Source: Cyanobacteriota bacterium (GTDB lineage Bacteria; Cyanobacteriota; Cyanobacteriia; Thermostichales; Thermostichaceae). Taken from it: a stretch of DNA of 64,000 bases. Both the position numbers and the translations under genes were made by a program. The notes beneath the pieces were generated by a model. That model was given only the letters and a program-made list of their open reading frames with translations, was not told where the DNA came from and searched no databases. Shown one piece after another: positions 2,962 through 35,350 of the stretch. The stretch covers positions 64,001 to 128,000 of the forward strand of contig JANRIL010000042.1 in NCBI GenBank assembly GCA_033764955.1. Direction: 5' to 3'. Position 1 is the stretch's first letter, and each line of letters opens with the position of its first letter.

Positions 2962-4482
2962 ATGCAAGTGACTCAGGAAAAGCGCCCAGGCAGTCAGGTT
3001 GGGTTGACCATCGTTGTTGACGCAGAACAGGTCAAAAAAATCTACGACAAAACGGTGCGAGATCTCGTGCAAAATTTTCAGGTGCAGGGATTTCGCAAAG
3101 GGAAAGCACCCCGCCACCTCGTCATGCGCTACCTGGGGAAAGAACGGGTGGTGGCCAATGTCATCGATGATTTGATCAATGATTCGGTTACCACAGCCTT
3201 TCACCAAACCAAGCTGACCCCCATCAACAAATTCCAGATCGAAAGCGATATCCCCCAACTGATCGGCAGCTTTGATCCGGCAGGGGAGTTTACCTTTGTT
3301 GGATACGTAGAGGTTTATCCTGAGGTGACGCTGGGCAACTATAAAAACTTAACCGTCAGTCCCACCCGTGTGGATATGGATCCGCAGCAGATTGCCGCCA
3401 CCATCGATCGTTGGCGGGAGCAACGGGCTACCCTCCTGCCAATTGAAGATCGTCCCGCACAACTGGGGGATGTAGCGGTTGTGGATTTCTCAGGGGTGGA
3501 TAGCCACGGGGATCCGATAGAAGGAGGCTCAGCCACTGACTTTCAACTGGATTTGCAGGAGAGCAACTTCATCCCTGGCTTTGTGGCGGGGGTTGTGGGA
3601 ATGCAACTGGATGAAACCCGTGAAATTGCCGCTCAATTTCCAGAGGACTATTTTCAAGAGGCATTGGCTGGACAGGCGGCTACTTTTACCGTCACCCTCA
3701 AAGAATTAAAGGCCAAAGAACTACCCGAATTGGATGATCCGTTTGTTCAAGAGATCAGTGATTTTCAGACCGTGGATGAACTAAAGGAGCATCTGCGCTT
3801 GCGCTTGATCCGCGAGGCTGCGGTCAAATCCAAAGACAACCTAGAAGCAGCCATTATTGAGCAGATCTTGGCGGTCACCGAAGTAGACCTGCCCGTCAGC
3901 TTGATTGAGCAAGAATCCTCTCAGTTGTTAGCGCAAAGCCTCAGCAGTATGCAGGAAAAAGGACTCGGCGTTCCAGATATTCGGCAATTTATCTCCAGCC
4001 TGCCACAGGAAACCCTTAACAATTTAATGGAACGCTTTCAACCGGAGGCCATCAACCGCCTCAAACGCACCCTAGCCTTGGGGAAAATTGTTGAGAATGA
4101 ACGTATCTCCGTCGGTGAAACGGAGCTGGAGGTGGCGGTTCAGGAAGTTTTGGACAACTACCCCCAGACTCGCCAGGATGTTAAACGATTACAGAAGATC
4201 ATTCATGAAGACTTGTTGACAAACAAGGTGATGAACTGGTTAAAATCCAACACCACTGTCACCTGGCTGGATGGAGAAGGCAACCCCATTGACGCTCCTG
4301 AGCTGGCAGAAGCCGAGGAAGAGTCGGCATTGGATTCAGCCTCCAGCATCCCTGAGGCCGAATTCACGGAAGAAGTGGAGGATAACCGCCTCACTTCTGA
4401 AGACTCTCCACAAGCATCTCTACGCGAATCTCCACCAGTAACGGGTGAGGATGTGCTGACAACCGAGGATCCTGTCCTCTAG
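2962..4482 (+). CDS. tig: Trigger factor (PPIase chaperone) with acidic C-terminal tail
   Basis: GFRKGKAP ribosome-binding signature, FKBP domain (GDVAVVDF...FIPGF...FPEDY); ATG at 2962 preferred to TTG at 2938. Confidence 0.95.
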   Translation: MQVTQEKRPGSQVGLTIVVDAEQVKKIYDKTVRDLVQNFQVQGFRKGKAPRHLVMRYLGKERVVANVIDDLINDSVTTAFHQTKLTPINKFQIESDIPQLIGSFDPAGEFTFVGYVEVYPEVTLGNYKNLTVSPTRVDMDPQQIAATIDRWREQRATLLPIEDRPAQLGDVAVVDFSGVDSHGDPIEGGSATDFQLDLQESNFIPGFVAGVVGMQLDETREIAAQFPEDYFQEALAGQAATFTVTLKELKAKELPELDDPFVQEISDFQTVDELKEHLRLRLIREAAVKSKDNLEAAIIEQILAVTEVDLPVSLIEQESSQLLAQSLSSMQEKGLGVPDIRQFISSLPQETLNNLMERFQPEAINRLKRTLALGKIVENERISVGETELEVAVQEVLDNYPQTRQDVKRLQKIIHEDLLTNKVMNWLKSNTTVTWLDGEGNPIDAPELAEAEEESALDSASSIPEAEFTEEVEDNRLTSEDSPQASLRESPPVTGEDVLTTEDPVL

Positions 4483-12713: not shown

Positions 12714-13127
12714 AATGATCCTATCAACACTAACTCCCAAACCCTTATCGTCTCCTGTCTGGGAAAAACCCGCAACCCTAGCCTCCTTTCGGAAGGGGGT
12801 GAGTTGAGGGGGAAAAGACGGCCAATCGCCAGCCCAAGCCTCTGGGAAAGGAGTTGCGGCAGTCAGAGCTATCGGCATCGCCACCATCCATCGTGAAGTC
12901 CAACATCTTGACTGTAATAGGCTGACTTCATCCCAGGCGGCTAGTTGCAGAAAGTGCAACCAAATGATTCGCAAGATCTGAGCTATAGGGGGATCCCAAC
13001 TATCCATCGGCAGGGATCAAAACGGCAAAACCCTGTGGTCTAAAACCTGCCCCAGTCTATCCAACCCATGCTCTAGCTTGACGGTTTCATTCCCACTGGG
13101 CTTATCAATACCGAAGGAGGGAATCAG

Positions 13128-13215
13128 GCAGAACGTTCGCGTTCACTGGACGCAGATAACATCTTGCACCTATAGATATCCTCTCGACGGTCGGCGTGCA
13201 TGAGCGTTGTTAGCT
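13128..13215 (-). other. attC-like integron recombination site (~88 bp)
   Basis: Minus strand AGCTAAC-AACGCTCATGCACGCCGAC...GTCCAGTGAACGCGAAC-GTTCTGC: inverse core (AAC) and core (GTT) ends with imperfect inverted arms and a TGCA/TGA one-base asymmetry. Confidence 0.7.
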
Positions 13216-13368
13216 GGATGTTTTGTAGCAGAACTCTGAAAGCCGGCACATAGACATTTCCTCTAACCATTGGAATACGACCACCTAAATCTTGATATCC
13301 AAACTTTGAGAGGTTTTGGGGTTCTCAAACTAAATTGGAACGCCTATAAGCACAAAGATTTATCTATC

Positions 13369-13854
13369 TTAATTAAAAAGAAACGGCTTAACAGAAGAAA
13401 TCATACGTTTCAACTCAGTTTTGTTGTGCCTGAGAAGATCATGCTCCCATAATCCATCAGTATTATCAGAACAATTAGCTGAAAGAGCCTCTCCAATTGA
13501 TTCCAAACTCTTTCCAAGGCTGCTTCTTAACTCCTCTGGATTAGATAAGACTCCAAGGACAAACACCCTGTCCTTTACATCATCTGGAATCTGTTGCTTT
13601 ACGTAACCAAGGCGATCTTCTTCTCTATCAAAATCAATAAGTAATACAAACCGCCTATTCGGATACTTACGCATTGTAGGTATAAAGCTTGTTGTGAACT
13701 TATCTACTACTACCTTCCATCCACCGACATAGGACAAAACTTGAATTGATCGTGCATTCAGTTGAGGATGAAGCAAAAACCCATTTGCTATGTCTGAGTT
13801 CGCCTCATCTTCGGGCAACACAAGAATATGTGGCAAGTACTTGTTAACGCTCAT
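13369..13854 (-). CDS. Small TOPRIM-fold-like protein (RloB/DUF4276/DUF4435-like), putative defence nuclease
   Basis: 161 aa; HILVLPED (conserved Glu after strand 1), GG, LLIDFD (DxD), LSNPEEL; ATGA overlap with the ATPase. Confidence 0.6.
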   Translation of the reverse strand: MSVNKYLPHILVLPEDEANSDIANGFLLHPQLNARSIQVLSYVGGWKVVVDKFTTSFIPTMRKYPNRRFVLLIDFDREEDRLGYVKQQIPDDVKDRVFVLGVLSNPEELRSSLGKSLESIGEALSANCSDNTDGLWEHDLLRHNKTELKRMISSVKPFLFN

Positions 13855-14954
13855 AACTCTGTATCACCAAGGATTAAGCTATCTATAAGATCGCCACTAA
13901 TAGATACTTCACTCAGTGATCGGATCAAAGTTGGTTCTAGATGGCTTTTCCTGTCAAGCAAAAAAGTGTTTTCACTCGAAAATTTTCGGATAGCCTCCTG
14001 ATTGTGCGAAGTTGCCAAAAGTTGCCCACTATTTTTGAAAGAACGTCGTAGTGAAACAATGAAATGTCCAACCTCTGATAAAGAGAGATAGTTGTCAGGC
14101 TCGTCCCAAAAGCAAAAAAGCGGACCGTAGTGTTTGTTGGCAGCCAGGACAACTGCACAAAGGAAAAAGCATTTCTCTCCATCAGATAAGTCTTTAAATT
14201 CAATAGTAAAGTTTCTATCATTCTTTTCAAAGCTGACGATCGTACTCTTGAAGTTTCTGCTGACCGATTGATTTTGAATATCGCTAATATCAGGCATTAC
14301 TACTTGAAGATATTTCTTTATCTCTGTATAAGCAGCGGGATAACGGCTCAGCAAGCCTGAGAACCACTCTCCAAAATTTGAACCATCTCGCTTTGGCTCC
14401 AAAGTTTCACCCTGGGAGTCTCCAGTTATCAAGCTCGGAATTGGAGCTAGAATAATCATTCGTGCAAGCCAAGTTCTGAAAATACAGAGCGGATCAGTTT
14501 CCGATTGTTCCTGAATCACCGGAAGAGCAATAAGATGCCAATCCATTAAGAACTGAGCCTCTGGATTGCGTGAAGTGAGAGTGACTTGGGCTTCTTTTCT
14601 AGAGTAAACTGACTTTCCTGAAACTAGTAATTGTTCTTCAAACACCCGAAGTTCTCTGAAATCTTCTGGCAACTCCAGTGCAAGCATATACTTATACAAC
14701 TTATTTTTAATTAGCACCTCTATTTCAAATCGAATTGGGACATTAGATCTGTTAGGGGAAAAGTCTTTGGGTTGAACCAGTTGCCTAACTCTATTGACAC
14801 CTCGACCAATGCTCTGAAATAGCTCTAGTGAACTAGCAATAGTTGATTTACCTGCACCGTTTCTTCCGATTAAAAGAGCAGATGACATTTCCCTAAGAGA
14901 AAATTCAAAATTTTCCAGACATCTGAAGTTGTGTACATACAGCCTTTGGAGCAT
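13851..14954 (-). CDS. Soluble ABC-type ATPase (AAA_21/AAA_15-like)
   Basis: MLQRLYVHNFRCL start, Walker A GRNGAGKS, signature LSDGE, Walker B/D-loop FWDEPDNYL, H-switch ATSH; no transmembrane partner. Confidence 0.88.
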   Translation of the reverse strand: MLQRLYVHNFRCLENFEFSLREMSSALLIGRNGAGKSTIASSLELFQSIGRGVNRVRQLVQPKDFSPNRSNVPIRFEIEVLIKNKLYKYMLALELPEDFRELRVFEEQLLVSGKSVYSRKEAQVTLTSRNPEAQFLMDWHLIALPVIQEQSETDPLCIFRTWLARMIILAPIPSLITGDSQGETLEPKRDGSNFGEWFSGLLSRYPAAYTEIKKYLQVVMPDISDIQNQSVSRNFKSTIVSFEKNDRNFTIEFKDLSDGEKCFFLCAVVLAANKHYGPLFCFWDEPDNYLSLSEVGHFIVSLRRSFKNSGQLLATSHNQEAIRKFSSENTFLLDRKSHLEPTLIRSLSEVSISGDLIDSLILGDTEL

Positions 14955-15130
14955 AGAAAAGTAACTCTGAGTTCTTGGAAAATAAAGGTTTTTGAGACAA
15001 CCTAATTTAATCAATTTACACTATTGACAACTCTTAGCGAAGCTGTATACGGAACCCAGAGACTCTGAGGCTTCCAGCTAACAACAGGCTAAGCGGCAAG
15101 GCTGTCCTACGCCAGCAAGGGTAGAGCCAG

Positions 15131-16306
15131 CTAGCAACTGGCCAATACCCGTAAAATTTCACTGGCGGCTCGATCCAAAACCCCCGGCTCCCCTAACGCT
15201 AAGCGCATCTGCTGATAGTCCTGCTGCATCTGTTGACGGCGTTGGGGGTTAGTCAGGAGCGCCAGGGCTTCCTCCGCAATCCGCGAGGGTTGCGCCTCCT
15301 CTTGAAACAGTTCCGGCACAATCAGACGCATCTGTACCAAATTAGGGGGAGACATAAACGGGATGGAAAAATTGAGGATCGTTTTGCCAATCCAATAAGT
15401 GAGGCGGCTGACCCGATAGACCACCACCTGCGGGATCCCTAAAATCGCTGACTCCAGGTTGACGGTTCCCGATTTCGCCACAATCAAATCTGCTGCCGCC
15501 AAGATCGTCTGGTGTTCGCGGGATCCCTGTGGTTTGAGCAGGGTAATCTCAATCTCCTGCTGTTTAGCCAACTTTAAGAGAGGGGGAGCAAACCGCTCTG
15601 CCGCCAAGGGCAACCAAAACTTCACCTGAGGAAGCTGCTGTTGGAGGAGACGAGCCGCCGCGAAAATGACGGGAGCCACATGCCGCAGTTCTTGATTGCG
15701 AGAGGCCGGGAATAGCATGACCGCCATCTGATCCGCCGGGATCCCCAAATGCTGGCGAGCCTGAAGGCGATCGGGGGCGGCAGACAGAATATCGAGGAGG
15801 GGATGCCCAACCCAGCGCACATTTCCTCCGGCAGCTTCATAAAACTCGGCCTCTTGGGGAAAGATGGCCAGCATCAAGCGCATCCGTTCCGCCAATTGAA
15901 AGCTAATGCGCGAGCTAGTCGTCCAAATCCATTCTTGGGGAGCAATGTAATAGATGGCGGGGATCCCTTGGCGCTGGAGAACCGATGAAAGGCGACTGTT
16001 CACCCCGATGTAGTCTACCAAGACACACAAATCCGGTCTGTCTCTAGCTAAAAAGCGACGAATCCGCCACTCCACCCAAAGGGCGGGGCCAATAAAGGGT
16101 AGCGCCTCAACAATGCCAATCGAGCTGATCGCCGTCGTTTTTTGCAGGAGGGTGGCTCCCGCCGCCGCCATCCGCTCCCCCCCCACGGCAGTAATGCGGA
16201 GATGGGGATCCCGGCGGAGCAGGGCTTGAATTAAATAGCTCGCTTGGAGATCCCCTGAGATTTCTCCGGTGCAAACCAACAGATGGGGGGAGTTTGCCAT
16301 AACCAT
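15131..16306 (-). CDS. lpxB: Lipid-A-disaccharide synthase
   Basis: TGEISGDL, YYIAPQEWIW, VGHPLLD, FPASRNQE, KSGTVNLE; last gene of the lpx cluster. Confidence 0.95.
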   Translation of the reverse strand: MVMANSPHLLVCTGEISGDLQASYLIQALLRRDPHLRITAVGGERMAAAGATLLQKTTAISSIGIVEALPFIGPALWVEWRIRRFLARDRPDLCVLVDYIGVNSRLSSVLQRQGIPAIYYIAPQEWIWTTSSRISFQLAERMRLMLAIFPQEAEFYEAAGGNVRWVGHPLLDILSAAPDRLQARQHLGIPADQMAVMLFPASRNQELRHVAPVIFAAARLLQQQLPQVKFWLPLAAERFAPPLLKLAKQQEIEITLLKPQGSREHQTILAAADLIVAKSGTVNLESAILGIPQVVVYRVSRLTYWIGKTILNFSIPFMSPPNLVQMRLIVPELFQEEAQPSRIAEEALALLTNPQRRQQMQQDYQQMRLALGEPGVLDRAASEILRVLASC

Positions 16307-31665: not shown

Positions 31666-33531
31666 TTGATTTTGCTTTCGACTGCTTCCGACTCGTCTGA
31701 ACAATCCCGCCAACAGAGCGACTGGCGGTTGTTAGGGGCGCTCTGGCCCTATGCCCGTCGCCACTGGAGTTATTTGGTATGGTCGCTGGTTTTCTTGCCC
31801 TTATTGGCGTTCGCTGATGCCGTGCAGCCCCTCATCCTGCAACGGGCGATTGATGGCCCAATTGCTCAAGCGCTGGCGGAAGGACAGTTAGCCATCTCCG
31901 GCTTAACGATCTACATAGTTTGGCTCCTGTTAACAGTTGTTGCCCGTCTAGTCTTTCAGGGGTTGGAGGGCTACACCAGCCAGACCTTGGGGCAACTGAT
32001 GACCCGTGATATTCGTTCCGATTTATTTGCCCACATCCTGCGCCTACCTGCCCGTTTTTTCGACCGAACCCCCGTAGGCAGGTTGATCACCCGCATTACC
32101 AGTGATGTGGAAGCCTTGGGGGATGTATTTTCCACGGGAACCATTGGCATAGTCAGTGATCTCTTTACCTTGCTGGTAATCGGGGTGGTCATGATCAGTC
32201 AGCGCTGGGACTTGGGGCTGTTGATGGTGGGTCTGGTCATCCCGATGGCTGTCTTGGTGATCGGGCTGCAACGGCGCTACCGCGATGCTAATTTTCGGGT
32301 GCGGGAGGAGCTGTCTCGTCTCAACTCCTGGCTACAAGAAAATATCTTGGGGGTGAATGTTGTCCAACTGTTTCGGCGGGAGCGTCTGAACGGGGAGATT
32401 TTTCGGGATATCAATCGCCGCTATATTCAGGAAGTCGATGCCACAATTTTTTATGATTCGGTGTTGTCGGCCATTTTGGAATGGGTGGCATGGCTAGCCG
32501 TGGCGGCTCTCCTCTGGGTGGGTGGGCAGCAGATTTTGCAGGCGAGTTTACCGAATTGGGTGGCTCAAACGTCGGGATCCCTCCCTCTGCCTGGTAACGG
32601 GGATCCCCTTACCTTTGGCAGTCTCTACGCTTTTATTCTTTTTTCTCAGCGATTTTTTAACCCTCTCCGCCAACTGGCCGAGAAATTTACCTCTCTACAG
32701 GCGGGTTTTACGGCGGTGGAACGGATCACCAGTATTTTGAACCTGACTCCTGACATTCAGGATCCCCCGCAGCCGCGCACCTTGCCCTCACAGGGAGGCG
32801 GAGAAATTGCTTTTGAGCATGTCTGGTTTGGTTACTCCGAGGGGGAGTGGGTGCTCAAGGATCTCAACTTTACCGTCAGACCTGGGGAAAAAATTGCCCT
32901 AGTCGGACCAACGGGAGCCGGAAAAAGTTCGATTATTCGTCTGCTCTGTCGATTGTATGAGGTGAGTCGAGGGCGAATTTTAATTGATGGGGTGGATATC
33001 CGCGATCTGACTCAAGCAGAATTGCATCGGCAGGTAGGCGTGATTTTGCAGGACGGCTTTTTGTTTGCCGGAGACATTGTGGACAACATTACCCTCGGTG
33101 AAACCGGGGAATTAGCGGCGGTACAACACACGGCTCAACAGCTCAACCTGGATCCGTTTATTCAAGATTTGCCCAAAGGCTATCAAACCTCGGTGCGGGA
33201 GCGGGGCAACAACCTTTCTAGCGGACAAAAACAGTTGATTAGTTTTGTGCGAGCCATGTGGCGCAATCCCCGCATTTTGGTCTTGGATGAGGCCACTGCT
33301 AGTTTGGACATCGGCACGGAAGCTCTTCTACAAGAGGCACTGGATCATCTTCTCGACAACCGCACCGCCCTGATGATTGCCCACCGCCTTTCCACCATTC
33401 GGCAGGTGGATCGCATCTTAGTTCTGCAACGGGGGGAACTGAAAGAACAGGGATCCCATAGTGAGCTGATGGCCTTAAATGGCCTTTATGCCAGCCTCTA
33501 CCGCCTGCAAGATCTGGGATCCCCTGGTTAG
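31666..33531 (+). CDS. ABC exporter, fused permease/ATPase (MdlB-like)
   Basis: TM domain, GPTGAGKS, LSSGQKQL, LVLDEAT, IAHRLST. Confidence 0.93.
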   Translation: MILLSTASDSSEQSRQQSDWRLLGALWPYARRHWSYLVWSLVFLPLLAFADAVQPLILQRAIDGPIAQALAEGQLAISGLTIYIVWLLLTVVARLVFQGLEGYTSQTLGQLMTRDIRSDLFAHILRLPARFFDRTPVGRLITRITSDVEALGDVFSTGTIGIVSDLFTLLVIGVVMISQRWDLGLLMVGLVIPMAVLVIGLQRRYRDANFRVREELSRLNSWLQENILGVNVVQLFRRERLNGEIFRDINRRYIQEVDATIFYDSVLSAILEWVAWLAVAALLWVGGQQILQASLPNWVAQTSGSLPLPGNGDPLTFGSLYAFILFSQRFFNPLRQLAEKFTSLQAGFTAVERITSILNLTPDIQDPPQPRTLPSQGGGEIAFEHVWFGYSEGEWVLKDLNFTVRPGEKIALVGPTGAGKSSIIRLLCRLYEVSRGRILIDGVDIRDLTQAELHRQVGVILQDGFLFAGDIVDNITLGETGELAAVQHTAQQLNLDPFIQDLPKGYQTSVRERGNNLSSGQKQLISFVRAMWRNPRILVLDEATASLDIGTEALLQEALDHLLDNRTALMIAHRLSTIRQVDRILVLQRGELKEQGSHSELMALNGLYASLYRLQDLGSPG

Positions 33532-33643
33532 CTGAATACGCTAGAGGTAGCTAACAGCCAAACACTGGATTGGTGCGGATGATTGAGAGTTTTTAGTGCC
33601 GAGTTTGATCTGATCGGTCACCCCCCATCACCGGTAGACGGCG

Positions 33644-35350
33644 TTAAACCAATGGAGACTGCTTAAAGTGATCCGGTTGCCGCAGGATATCCATCACCTG
33701 CTCGGCAGGCAAGGGGCGACTAAAGAAATAGCCCTGCACATCATCACATCCCTGCGATCTTAAGTAATGGAACTGTTCGGCGGTTTCAACCCCTTCCGCT
33801 GTAATTTGCAGATCCAAGCTTTGACCGAGGGCAATAATCGCTTTGGCAATGGCGGCATCGCTGGCTTCCTGAGGGAGGTTACGCACAAAAGACTGATCAA
33901 TTTTTAGGGTATGGATAGGGAACCGCCGCAGATAATTAAGCGATGAATAACCCGTACCAAAGTCATCTAACGCCAATCGGATCCCCATCTGATGAAGCTG
34001 TTCGGTGATGGCAATCGCCTGCTCGATATTCTCCATCAAAATACTTTCGGTCAACTCAAGCTCTAAATAAGAGATATCCATCTCGGTTTCCGCAATAATT
34101 TGGTGAATAACTTCAACCAGATGAGGCTGACGAAACTGTCTTGCGGATAGATTCACAGCAATGCTAACGGGCGGTAGTCCGGCTTGTTTCCAGCGGCGAA
34201 ATTGTTGGCAAGCAGTGCGAAGCACCCACTCCCCAATTGATAAAATTAGATCACTGTCTTCCGCAATAGGGATAAATTTTCCAGGAGAAACCCATCCTAG
34301 CGTCGGATGATGCCATCGCAAGAGAGCCTCTAAAGACAACACTTGCAACTGTGCCAGTTCGATTTTCGGTTGATAGTGTAGGTGTAGCTGCTGGCGGGAT
34401 ATGGCCTCTCGCAGTTCTTGCTCTAAATATAAACGTTCTTGAAGTTGCGAATTAACCGTTGCATCATAAAACTGATAGGTATTACGTCCTGATTCTTTTG
34501 CTTGATGTCGGGCGATGTCGGAGTTTTTGAGGAGTTGGTCGCTACTACTTCCATCGTCCGGATAGAGAGTAATTCCTATGCTGGCAGTCATGTAGACTTG
34601 CTGGTTAGGATGAATAAAAAAAGGTTGAGTCAGAACTTGCAAGACACCTTTTGAGAATTGTTCAACATTACTTGTGCGAGAAGATGGGGTATGCAAAATA
34701 GCAAACTCATCACTGCCCAGTCGACATAAAATATCATTTTCGTGCAAGCAATTGGCTAGCCGACGGCTGACTTCTCGTAACACGTGATCGCCCTGTTCAT
34801 ATCCTAATGTAGTGTTGAACTGGCTAAATCGATCTAAGTCTAATGAGAGGAGATAGAAAGCCTGGTGATTTCGCTTGGCTGTTACCAAAGTTTCTTGCAG
34901 ATAGCTATGAAACAAAGATCGATTGGGGAGTCCTGTTAGTTGGTCATAGTTAGTCAAATGCCGCAGGGCTTCGTCCAGTTGTTTGATCGTGCGAACAGTA
35001 TCCGCCATCAACGTGCCAGCTTCATCGGTAAATTGCGTGGGCAAGCTGGGCAGTTTGCGCTCACGCAGATAGTCCCGCAGAGCTTTAGAAGCAAAAGTCA
35101 TTGGCACTAATAAATGATGCAAAGCCCAAAGGGTCAAGGCCGTACCGACTAATGTTGCCAGCAAGGCAATTAAGAGCACGGATAGGATATCATCCCAACG
35201 AAAGGAATGGCTGAGGATGAAATAAAAGAGAAGTCCCAAAAGCGGCACATGAGTTCCTAGAAAAGCAATCAACATAATCTTGCTTTCATAATTTCTCAGA
35301 TAGCTGACTCTGGAGAGAAAGCTATAAAACCGTAATTCGGGGCTGTACAT
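33644..35350 (-). CDS. Membrane GGDEF-EAL protein, probably a phosphodiesterase
   Basis: Two TM helices, HAMP-like linker, degenerate GSDEF, intact EAL and [10 protein letters not shown]. Confidence 0.9.
   Translation of the reverse strand: MYSPELRFYSFLSRVSYLRNYESKIMLIAFLGTHVPLLGLLFYFILSHSFRWDDILSVLLIALLATLVGTALTLWALHHLLVPMTFASKALRDYLRERKLPSLPTQFTDEAGTLMADTVRTIKQLDEALRHLTNYDQLTGLPNRSLFHSYLQETLVTAKRNHQAFYLLSLDLDRFSQFNTTLGYEQGDHVLREVSRRLANCLHENDILCRLGSDEFAILHTPSSRTSNVEQFSKGVLQVLTQPFFIHPNQQVYMTASIGITLYPDDGSSSDQLLKNSDIARHQAKESGRNTYQFYDATVNSQLQERLYLEQELREAISRQQLHLHYQPKIELAQLQVLSLEALLRWHHPTLGWVSPGKFIPIAEDSDLILSIGEWVLRTACQQFRRWKQAGLPPVSIAVNLSARQFRQPHLVEVIHQIIAETEMDISYLELELTESILMENIEQAIAITEQLHQMGIRLALDDFGTGYSSLNYLRRFPIHTLKIDQSFVRNLPQEASDAAIAKAIIALGQSLDLQITAEGVETAEQFHYLRSQGCDDVQGYFFSRPLPAEQVMDILRQPDHFKQSPLV

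Follow-up and report, generated by a model that had tools for sequence, protein, structure and literature searches.

Gene organization at the locus

We analysed a 64,000-nucleotide stretch of DNA (hereafter the window) from a Cyanobacteriota bacterium of the family Thermostichaceae (GenBank assembly GCA_033764955.1, contig JANRIL010000042.1, positions 64,001 to 128,000). On its minus strand lies a compact two-gene unit, in which the gene of an ABC-type ATPase is followed by the gene of a small TOPRIM-like protein of an unnamed family. The unit, which spans window positions 13134-15081, is very probably a single integron-type gene cassette. Its defining features are as follows.

13851..14954, minus strand: ABC-type ATPase gene, AAA_21/AAA_15 group, 367 aa, ATG start
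13369..13854, minus strand: gene of the TOPRIM-like protein, unnamed family, 161 aa; key residues E15/D16, G45, D74-F-D76 and S104..E107
15073..15085, minus strand: 5′ cassette junction, reading GTTGTTAGCTGGA; core GTTAGCT at 15082-15076, inferred crossover G15082/T15081
13120..13223, minus strand: attC-like site forming the 3′ end of the cassette; covariance model 44.7 bits, E 4.7e-8; nhmmer E 1.8e-12

A preliminary description of this locus, made from the DNA letters, had proposed the two open reading frames (ORFs) as the cargo of a cassette. The ORFs, their coordinates, the motifs quoted for them and their overlap are all present on the minus strand. In the ORF reading, the stop codon of the ATPase gene and the start codon of the small gene share an ATGA overlap. 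The ATPase carries the motifs GRNGAGKS (residues 30-37), LSDGE (256-260), WDEPD (283-287) and TSH (315-317), and the small protein carries VLPED (12-16), IDFD (73-76) and SNPEE (104-108). An alternative TTG start at 15014, upstream of the ATG, would extend the ATPase to 387 aa. We took the ATG as the start, because 27 of 27 aligned homologues begin at MLQRLY. The two 1-kb bins with the gene pair (13001-15000) have the lowest G+C content nearby (0.418 and 0.398, against 0.55-0.58 in the flanking bins).

A single integron-type cassette

Both ends of the putative cassette were located by comparison with related loci (denoted L followed by a number). The closest relatives, L002, L003 and L004, show 88-90% nucleotide homology over window positions 13347 to 15082-15085. 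In gene orientation, this homology starts exactly at GTTAGCTGGAAGCC, giving the junction G|TTAGCTGG with the core G|TTAGCT. The sequence GTTAGCTGG (15082-15085), at which the homology with L002-L004 begins and which corresponds to a G|TTRRRY 5′ boundary, is in L003 and L004 the R′ end of the upstream attC (…GGGAACGTTAGCTGG). At the 3′ end, the attC-like site has the R″ box AGCTAAC at 13215-13209 and the R′ box GTTCTGC at 13134-13128, and the cassette ends at G13134. We aligned 27 local sites, 11 from L002-L005 and 16 from the genome of the window, and built a covariance model (R1) from them; their consensus has 15 base pairs, 12 of which show compensatory changes. The window site is recognized by this structure-aware model with its R″/L″/L′/R′ boxes. 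R″ and L″ are kept and the 3′ half has diverged. No hairpin fold with an R/L stem was found for the window site (z -0.54 and -0.93), whereas the orthologous L003 site folds with bulged bases (z -4.43 and -4.91); none of 200 shuffled sequences folded equally well. An imperfect hairpin with extrahelical bases is required of an attC for recombination. The window copy therefore appears decayed.

In the relatives, the site downstream of the small gene is about 100 nt long and forms an imperfect hairpin typical of attC, with R″ AGCTAAC, an L box and R′ GTTAGCT. Immediately downstream of the small gene, the attC model finds a site in L002-L005 (58-108 bits) and in the three Nostoc-type loci L034, L032 and L038 (27-38 bits). 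L054 has a weak match (E 0.81), and once filters were switched off, weak matches that are not significant alone appeared at the same position in L014, L030 and L018 (E 0.46-0.8). L003 and L004 are arrays, since each contains six attC matches. In L004, which derives from a Leptolyngbyaceae metagenome-assembled genome (MAG), a PvuII-type restriction-modification pair (L004:1173-3002) precedes the ATPase/TOPRIM-like cassette by two attC sites. This pair is flanked by attC matches at 1049-1151 and 3001-3103, indicating that the L004 array holds other defence genes. The same cargo in the attC arrays of relatives, together with the G|TTAGCT junction and the attC-like site, agrees with the cassette cargo of the preliminary description.

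An intact copy exists in the cultured cyanobacterium Kovacikia minuta CCNUW1 (L166), whose small protein is 88.8% identical to that of the window. There, the pair is found on the 1.2-Mb plasmid pA among 10 attC matches in 30.5 kb. No integron integrase above the cut-off was found on this plasmid. Positions 5700-25600 of L166 form an array with at least 10 sites of the attC type, and two extra minus-strand ORFs (189 and 165 aa) lie between the stop codon of the pair (15495) and the next attC (16739).

The copy in the window does not reside in an integron or an attC array. On its contig (C5), no match to the TIGR02249 integrase model was found and the window site is the sole attC-like nhmmer match. 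No attC was found upstream of the cassette, where just 49 nt separate it from the stop codon of lpxB. This copy is probably stranded and immobile now. The genome itself, small at 3.8 Mb (89% complete), contains much integron material. Two integron integrases exceed the TIGR02249 cut-off (C9:19-960 and C38:63588-64529) and each has runs of attC-like sites beside it; integrase fragments are present at the starts of contigs C36, C4 and C30, and the genome has 49 attC-like nhmmer matches in all, many of which stand alone on other contigs. The cassette may have arrived by secondary-site capture at G|TT, or it may be the remnant of an array. An empty site for comparison was not obtainable, because lpxB and the DUF3038 gene downstream of the cassette are not adjacent in genomes of the same family.

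The last codons and stop of lpxB (…GCCAGTTGCTAGCTGG, 15127-15145) lie 53 nt from the 5′ junction of the cassette (…GCCTGTTGTTAGCTGG, 15074-15092) and share 16 of 19 positions with it. This likeness could be due to chance or could be a trace of cassette capture. A 13-nt perfect inverted repeat (13206-13218 and 15073-15085) was considered as transposon-like ends and rejected, as its arms are the attC R″ and the R′ core of the junction.

The ATPase

The ATPase exceeds the curated Pfam cut-offs of AAA_21 (E 2.1e-17; 64.6 bits, cut-off 27) and AAA_15 (E 2.8e-13; 50.7 bits, cut-off 32.1), with its Walker A, signature, Walker B and H-loop motifs intact, and it also matches SMC_N (3.8e-12). Among the PADLOC models, the best matches are AbiLi (8.5e-24), HEC-01A (4.7e-19) and AriA (2.2e-16), followed by mad3, PtuA and GajA. 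No NCBIfam model was matched near its cut-off, and the sequence search of the PDB retrieved distant heads alone (OLD, the retron Ec83 ATPase and Rad50). In an alignment of 28 sequences, with a mean column identity of 80%, the residues of Walker A (G30-S37), the signature (L256-E260), Walker B and the D-loop (W283-D287) and the H-loop (T315-H317) are invariant. Since all catalytic motifs are kept and the family matches agree, the protein belongs to the ABC ATPase group and looks active. This is the soluble ABC ATPase that had been proposed, and it belongs to the AAA_15/21 group used by AbiL, HEC-01, PARIS, Septu and Gabija. ATPases of the same group are described as tied to TOPRIM partners in OLD, Gabija, PARIS, AbiL and MADS (PMC11464382), and the HEC-01 ATPase is likewise reported to be paired with a TOPRIM protein (bioRxiv 10.1101/2024.01.29.577857).

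The small protein and its TOPRIM motifs

The small protein belongs to a large family, with 1,473 clusters (90% identity) at E ≤ 0.01. A profile search returned 877 clusters (50% identity) at E ≤ 1e-3. The 120 family matches listed are 147-174 aa long, lack any Pfam domain and are all named ‘hypothetical protein’. Keyword searches of the open-access literature did not find a name for the family, and its profile gave only chance-level rows against PDB sequences (E 0.065 or worse).

TOPRIM domains are defined by a glutamate after strand β1, an invariant glycine after β2 and a DxD motif at β3 of a four-stranded α/β unit, according to the description in PMC6755086. The AlphaFold2 model of the small protein (predicted local distance difference test 88.9, predicted template-modelling score 0.84) has the order β1(10-14)-α-β2(37-39)-α-β3(68-72)-α-β4(97-100)-α, followed by two helices. 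In the order of its secondary-structure elements, the model fits the TOPRIM fold, a four-stranded parallel sheet between two pairs of helices. E15 follows strand 10-14 and is invariant in 27 of 27 homologues and at least 90% conserved in a broader set of 73 sequences. In the latter set, G45 after strand 37-39 is invariant (73/73), and D74-F75-D76 after strand 68-72 contains an invariant D74 and a D76 that is at least 90% conserved. At the start of the next helix, S104..E107 resembles the second-metal ligands T506/E508 of BpOLD, a resemblance only.

Remote homology searches gave weak matches in register with these motifs. We aligned the small protein by hhalign to templates made from 23 cyanobacterial RloB proteins (201-270 aa) and 23 DUF4276 proteins. 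E15 and the DFD motif coincide with CEGE and FDRD in RloB and with their counterparts in DUF4276, with scores of 21.0 (P 0.018) and 20.0 (P 0.027), respectively. Column-shuffled templates gave means of 12.1 and 12.2 (sd 2.4 and 2.1), and the real score was reached by one of 100 shuffles in each case. These shallow alignments have little power, because even the positive control, RloB against DUF4276, reached just P 0.001. In structural comparison by VIA-align, the model matches Thermus OLD (Z 7.3), the C-terminal region of BpOLD (Z 6.4; 134 residues, 16% identity) and topoisomerase IIα (Z 6.2). Among the top 50 rows of a Foldseek search of BFVD, 12 are topoisomerases, primases, Toprim or RloB-like proteins, judged by their names. 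An ESM Atlas feature match at rank 16 is a cluster with RloB in 19% of its members. Prediction of a complex from alignments of the ATPase and the small protein gave scores of 0.30 and 0.14 against a mark of 0.32, run without controls, and yields no verdict. On balance, the small protein is probably a TOPRIM protein.

Pairing, selection and spread

The ATPase gene lies directly upstream of the small gene in all 80 related loci, at full length in 75, partial in three (L019, L028 and L059) and cut by contig ends in two. In two sequences (P0155 and P0274), the C-terminus of the ATPase and the small protein are in one frame. Both are N-truncated fragments and may therefore be natural fusions or frameshift errors. 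A search for longer fused homologues recovered one protein, itself N-truncated. Compared with eight relatives, dN/dS (the ratio of nonsynonymous to synonymous substitution rates) is 0.08-0.13 for the ATPase and 0.11-0.27 for the small protein, indicating that the pair is under purifying selection. Given the adjacency in 80 of 80 loci, these dN/dS values and the near-invariant motif residues, the gene pair is more than a chance arrangement.

The 80 loci represent 45 unrelated flank contexts. Relatives are encoded by 272 of 310 pattern-matched stretches drawn from 185,579 species genomes. Small proteins about 57-62% identical to that of the window occur in MAGs labelled Deltaproteobacteria, Gemmatimonadota, Thermotoga and Gammaproteobacteria, for which binning errors are possible.

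Comparison with known defence systems

The pair shares its general plan with several known systems and differs from each of them. HEC-01 (Hma-embedded candidate 01; PADLOC-DB) likewise consists of two genes, the ABC ATPase HEC-01A and then a separate TOPRIM protein, HEC-01B, as reported in bioRxiv 10.1101/2024.01.29.577857. The window ATPase aligns with HEC-01A end to end, residues 2-336 on 3-335 of 371, with the score of a distant relative. The small protein has no match to HEC-01B at E ≤ 1, and HEC-01 was, in that report, found embedded in Hma systems, whereas the window pair is an integron cassette.

In AbiL/RloAB, AbiLi is accompanied by AbiLii, a TOPRIM protein of the RloB family. AbiLi is the best PADLOC match of the window ATPase, although this match covers profile positions 49-265 of 326 only. 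The likeness of the partner to RloB consists of the weak in-register profile similarity and the ESM Atlas lead; in length, the partner falls about 40-90 residues short of the 23 cyanobacterial RloB proteins aligned above, and neither PADLOC nor the RloB hidden Markov model (HMM) matched it as AbiLii/RloB.

PARIS (OLD class 4) has the same split between an ATPase, AriA, and a TOPRIM protein, AriB (DUF4435). AriA models match the window ATPase at 2.2e-16 and 1.8e-14, only in two separate stretches, and the small protein shows no PADLOC or Pfam match to AriB/DUF4435 at E ≤ 1. The PARIS ATPase is described as a scaffold that releases a tRNA-cleaving TOPRIM effector (PMC11464382). With reported sizes of 55 kDa for AriA and 35 kDa for AriB, PARIS is much larger than the window pair of 367 and 161 aa.

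OLD proteins of classes 1 and 2 (P2 Old and Gabija GajA) also combine an ABC ATPase with a TOPRIM domain that has an E/DxD metal site, and the best structural TOPRIM matches of the small protein are Thermus OLD and the BpOLD C-terminal region. In these proteins, however, a single polypeptide of more than 500 aa combines both domains and has a helical insert bearing further catalytic residues, whereas the window has separate genes. Since the partner-protein match is lacking in each case, the pair is not PARIS, AbiL or HEC-01 as modelled.

Defence-like cargo in attC-bounded cassettes also has precedents, namely the defence-carrying integron cassettes known as BRiCs and the ‘biobanks’ of sedentary chromosomal integrons (bioRxiv 10.1101/2024.07.02.601719; 10.64898/2026.03.17.712381). 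As far as these reports describe them, they concern mobile integrons of enterobacteria and Pseudomonas and the arrays of Vibrio, whereas the window contains a lone, decayed cyanobacterial cassette outside an array. What is new here, within the OLD/PARIS/AbiL/HEC-01 kind, is the unnamed partner family and its cassette-borne lifestyle in cyanobacteria.

Proposed function and alternative explanations

An ATPase with a TOPRIM-type partner is the likely composition of the pair, and by analogy with the systems above an anti-phage role is slightly favoured. As a whole, the proposal that this cassette encodes an AAA_15/21 ATPase and a minimal stand-alone TOPRIM-like nuclease acting by an anti-phage mechanism has about even chances of being correct. 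In such a mechanism, modelled on PARIS, OLD and AbiL, an oligomer of the ATPase would hold the small nuclease inactive and act as an infection sensor. A phage trigger, together with ATP binding or hydrolysis, would free or activate the nuclease, which would then use its E15/D74/D76 metal site to cleave tRNA or DNA and would abort the infection. Binding of the two proteins to each other, nuclease activity, its substrate and the anti-phage role are all taken here from that analogy. More tentatively, and with somewhat less than even chances, the small protein might found a minimal stand-alone TOPRIM nuclease family (the 877 clusters at 50% identity) and form with its ATPase a new class of OLD-like immune module, which would move between phyla as an integron cassette and have a trigger or substrate unlike those of PARIS and AbiL.

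Several results weigh against the main proposal. With respect to the small protein, no match was found in Pfam, PADLOC or NCBIfam at E ≤ 1, and PHROG gave a single chance-level row; the statement of the preliminary description that the protein could not be placed in a named family thus holds. The curated profiles of the TOPRIM clan (Toprim, Toprim_2, RloB, DUF4276, DUF4435 and OLD-like) gave no significant match to it. The RloB HMM (PF13707) has zero matches across the genome of the window, and a DUF4276 HMM search of this genome did not recover the small protein. Toprim_2 (E 0.024) and DUF3226 (E 0.049) were each matched by one of 73 family members. The hhalign probabilities are low (2.5% for RloB and 1.8% for DUF4276), and the glycine of the DxDxxG motif of topoisomerases and primases is absent. 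The Foldseek search of the model against PDB and BFVD, a check that had been proposed beforehand, gave zero matches at E ≤ 1e-3, and hence no TOPRIM fold match at this level. In VIA-align, lumazine synthases (Z 7.0-7.4) score equal to or above OLD, and receiver domains follow at about 5.3-6.0. The fold is therefore not uniquely TOPRIM. The earlier TOPRIM-like assignment is supported by the three motifs and by weak remote homology, while the fold search leaves it unconfirmed.

Other points of this kind concern function and context. HEC-01, the published ATPase-TOPRIM pair whose architecture and ATPase profile are closest to those here, gave no protection in E. coli against any phage tested, as reported in bioRxiv 10.1101/2024.01.29.577857. 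A search of 50,697 phage records found zero matches. The unfolded attC-like site described above belongs here as well, as does the lack of a promoter: neither a consensus promoter nor a consensus terminator was found between lpxB and the ATPase gene. Read-through from the lpx operon is plausibly the source of expression of the pair, and the simplest one. A search for sequencing runs listed no RNA data set, and each of its seven rows contained 0.06 or less of the sampled words. For each of the 45 contexts, one representative locus was taken and its two closest ORFs on either side were examined (153 ORFs; 144 after exclusion of four ORFs shorter than 97 aa and five very long ones). Pfam identifies most of the neighbours as housekeeping genes (for example, those of anthranilate synthase, PsaD, EPSP synthase and DnaK). 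At E ≤ 1e-20, 13 of the 144 flanking ORFs match PADLOC models, a count without a background rate, and about half of them are generic helicases, Clp proteins and topoisomerases. Clearly defence-like neighbours occur in six contexts: the PvuII restriction-modification pair of the L004 array, REase_II (L020), MTase_II (L067), HigB (L047), PDC-S09 (L079) and Uma2/PDC-S17 (L044). PIN or PemK toxins lie next to the pair in three more. Because there is no background rate, an association with defence islands is neither supported nor excluded; the preliminary description had suggested looking for one among the homologues, and no clear association emerged.

The compact overlapping operon and its carriage in an integron cassette would also suit a selfish addiction module of the toxin-antitoxin (TA) kind, in which the ATPase restrains a nuclease toxin and the chief effect of the pair is to stabilize cassette arrays or the locus that received it, in place of phage sensing. 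In most of the 45 contexts, the pair is a lone islet among housekeeping genes, TA toxins (PIN, HigB and PemK) are neighbours in a few loci, and Pfam labels AAA_21 as ‘putative AbiEii toxin, Type IV TA system’. However, the pair lacks an antitoxin-like DNA-binding domain, and the ATPase retains all of its catalytic motifs and shows higher conservation than the small protein, which is more in keeping with a sensor or motor than with a passive antidote. We regard this explanation as unlikely, and note that TA and abortive-infection roles are not mutually exclusive. A different possibility is that the small protein is a non-catalytic α/β protein (flavodoxin- or receiver-like) that serves the ATPase as an adaptor or regulator, its acidic residues binding a metal or ligand for signalling. 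A receiver-like pattern likewise has an acidic pair following β1 and aspartates following β3. The ranking of lumazine synthase and receiver domains beside OLD would agree with this, as would the lack of a TOPRIM HMM match above threshold. On the other hand, the model has four strands, not five, and the conserved Thr/Lys pair of receivers is absent, whereas the invariant glycine after β2 together with the glutamate and DxD is the TOPRIM triad. The in-register alignments to RloB and DUF4276 beat 99 of 100 shuffles, and the same ATPase group is described as partnering with TOPRIM nucleases (PMC11464382). A non-catalytic adaptor thus seems decidedly unlikely.

A module with a cellular, non-phage function such as DNA repair, replication or cell-cycle control would account for the weak similarity of the ATPase to RecF, Rad50 and SMC heads and for the mostly housekeeping neighbours. 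For the archaeal OLD-family protein Cran1, a role in cell-cycle progression and not in defence has been reported (PMC12796447). Against such a function stand the patchy distribution, the 45 contexts among 80 loci, the cassette carriage, the low G+C content and the copies of about 60% identity in other phyla, which together indicate that the pair consists of accessory, horizontally moving genes. We consider a cellular function very improbable.

If the pair is active in defence, it would be the smallest known ATPase-plus-TOPRIM defence pair, with 528 aa encoded in 1.6 kb, and its size would make it a convenient model of how an ABC ATPase gates a TOPRIM nuclease. Activity would also give a name and a function to about 1,500 ‘hypothetical proteins’ and would bring cyanobacteria into the concept of integrons as defence libraries, beyond Vibrio and clinical integrons. 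Variants of this kind would be expected by a specialist. The family size, the compactness of the pair and the existence of a cultured host make it readily testable, and K. minuta CCNUW1, with its intact copy in an attC array, offers a direct experimental route.

Neighbouring genes and other features

Two further features adjoin or interrupt the cassette.

15131..16306, minus strand: lpxB, last gene of lpxC-fabZ-lpxA-lpxB, Pfam LpxB 8.6e-88; ends 49 nt upstream of the cassette
~13249..13352, strand not assigned: dispersed repeat resembling a miniature inverted-repeat transposable element, between the stop codon of the small gene and the attC-like site; boundaries approximate

The genes lpxC-fabZ-lpxA-lpxB, of which lpxB is a lipid A gene, precede the cassette in the same orientation, and genes with DUF3038 and DUF4335 follow it downstream. 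The dispersed repeat is about 95-100 bp long, has terminal inverted repeats of roughly 16 nt and is flanked by TA. Including that of the window, 28 copies of at least 60 nt exist genome-wide, on more than 20 contigs (for example, C23:77894, C18:41651 and C29:1824), several of them within a few kb of contig ends. The repeat is absent from the same place in L002-L005. An Rfam scan of window positions 12900-15200 gave zero matches, the repeat included. The repeat (77-100 bp) was also considered as an attC site and rejected, as it is unfolded (z -0.98), has terminal inverted repeats of its own and occurs on more than 20 contigs.

Elsewhere in the window, positions 33530-33650 of the plus strand contain a weak attC match (21.5 bits, E 0.046) between two convergent ORFs. 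This site has GTTAGCT and AGCTAAC motifs and is unfolded (z +0.63); it may be a further decayed attC or a chance match. The same genome also carries a DUF4276 gene (an RloB-related TOPRIM protein) with one TAA stop codon at C42:18414-18968, a second and apparently broken gene of the ATPase-partner type.

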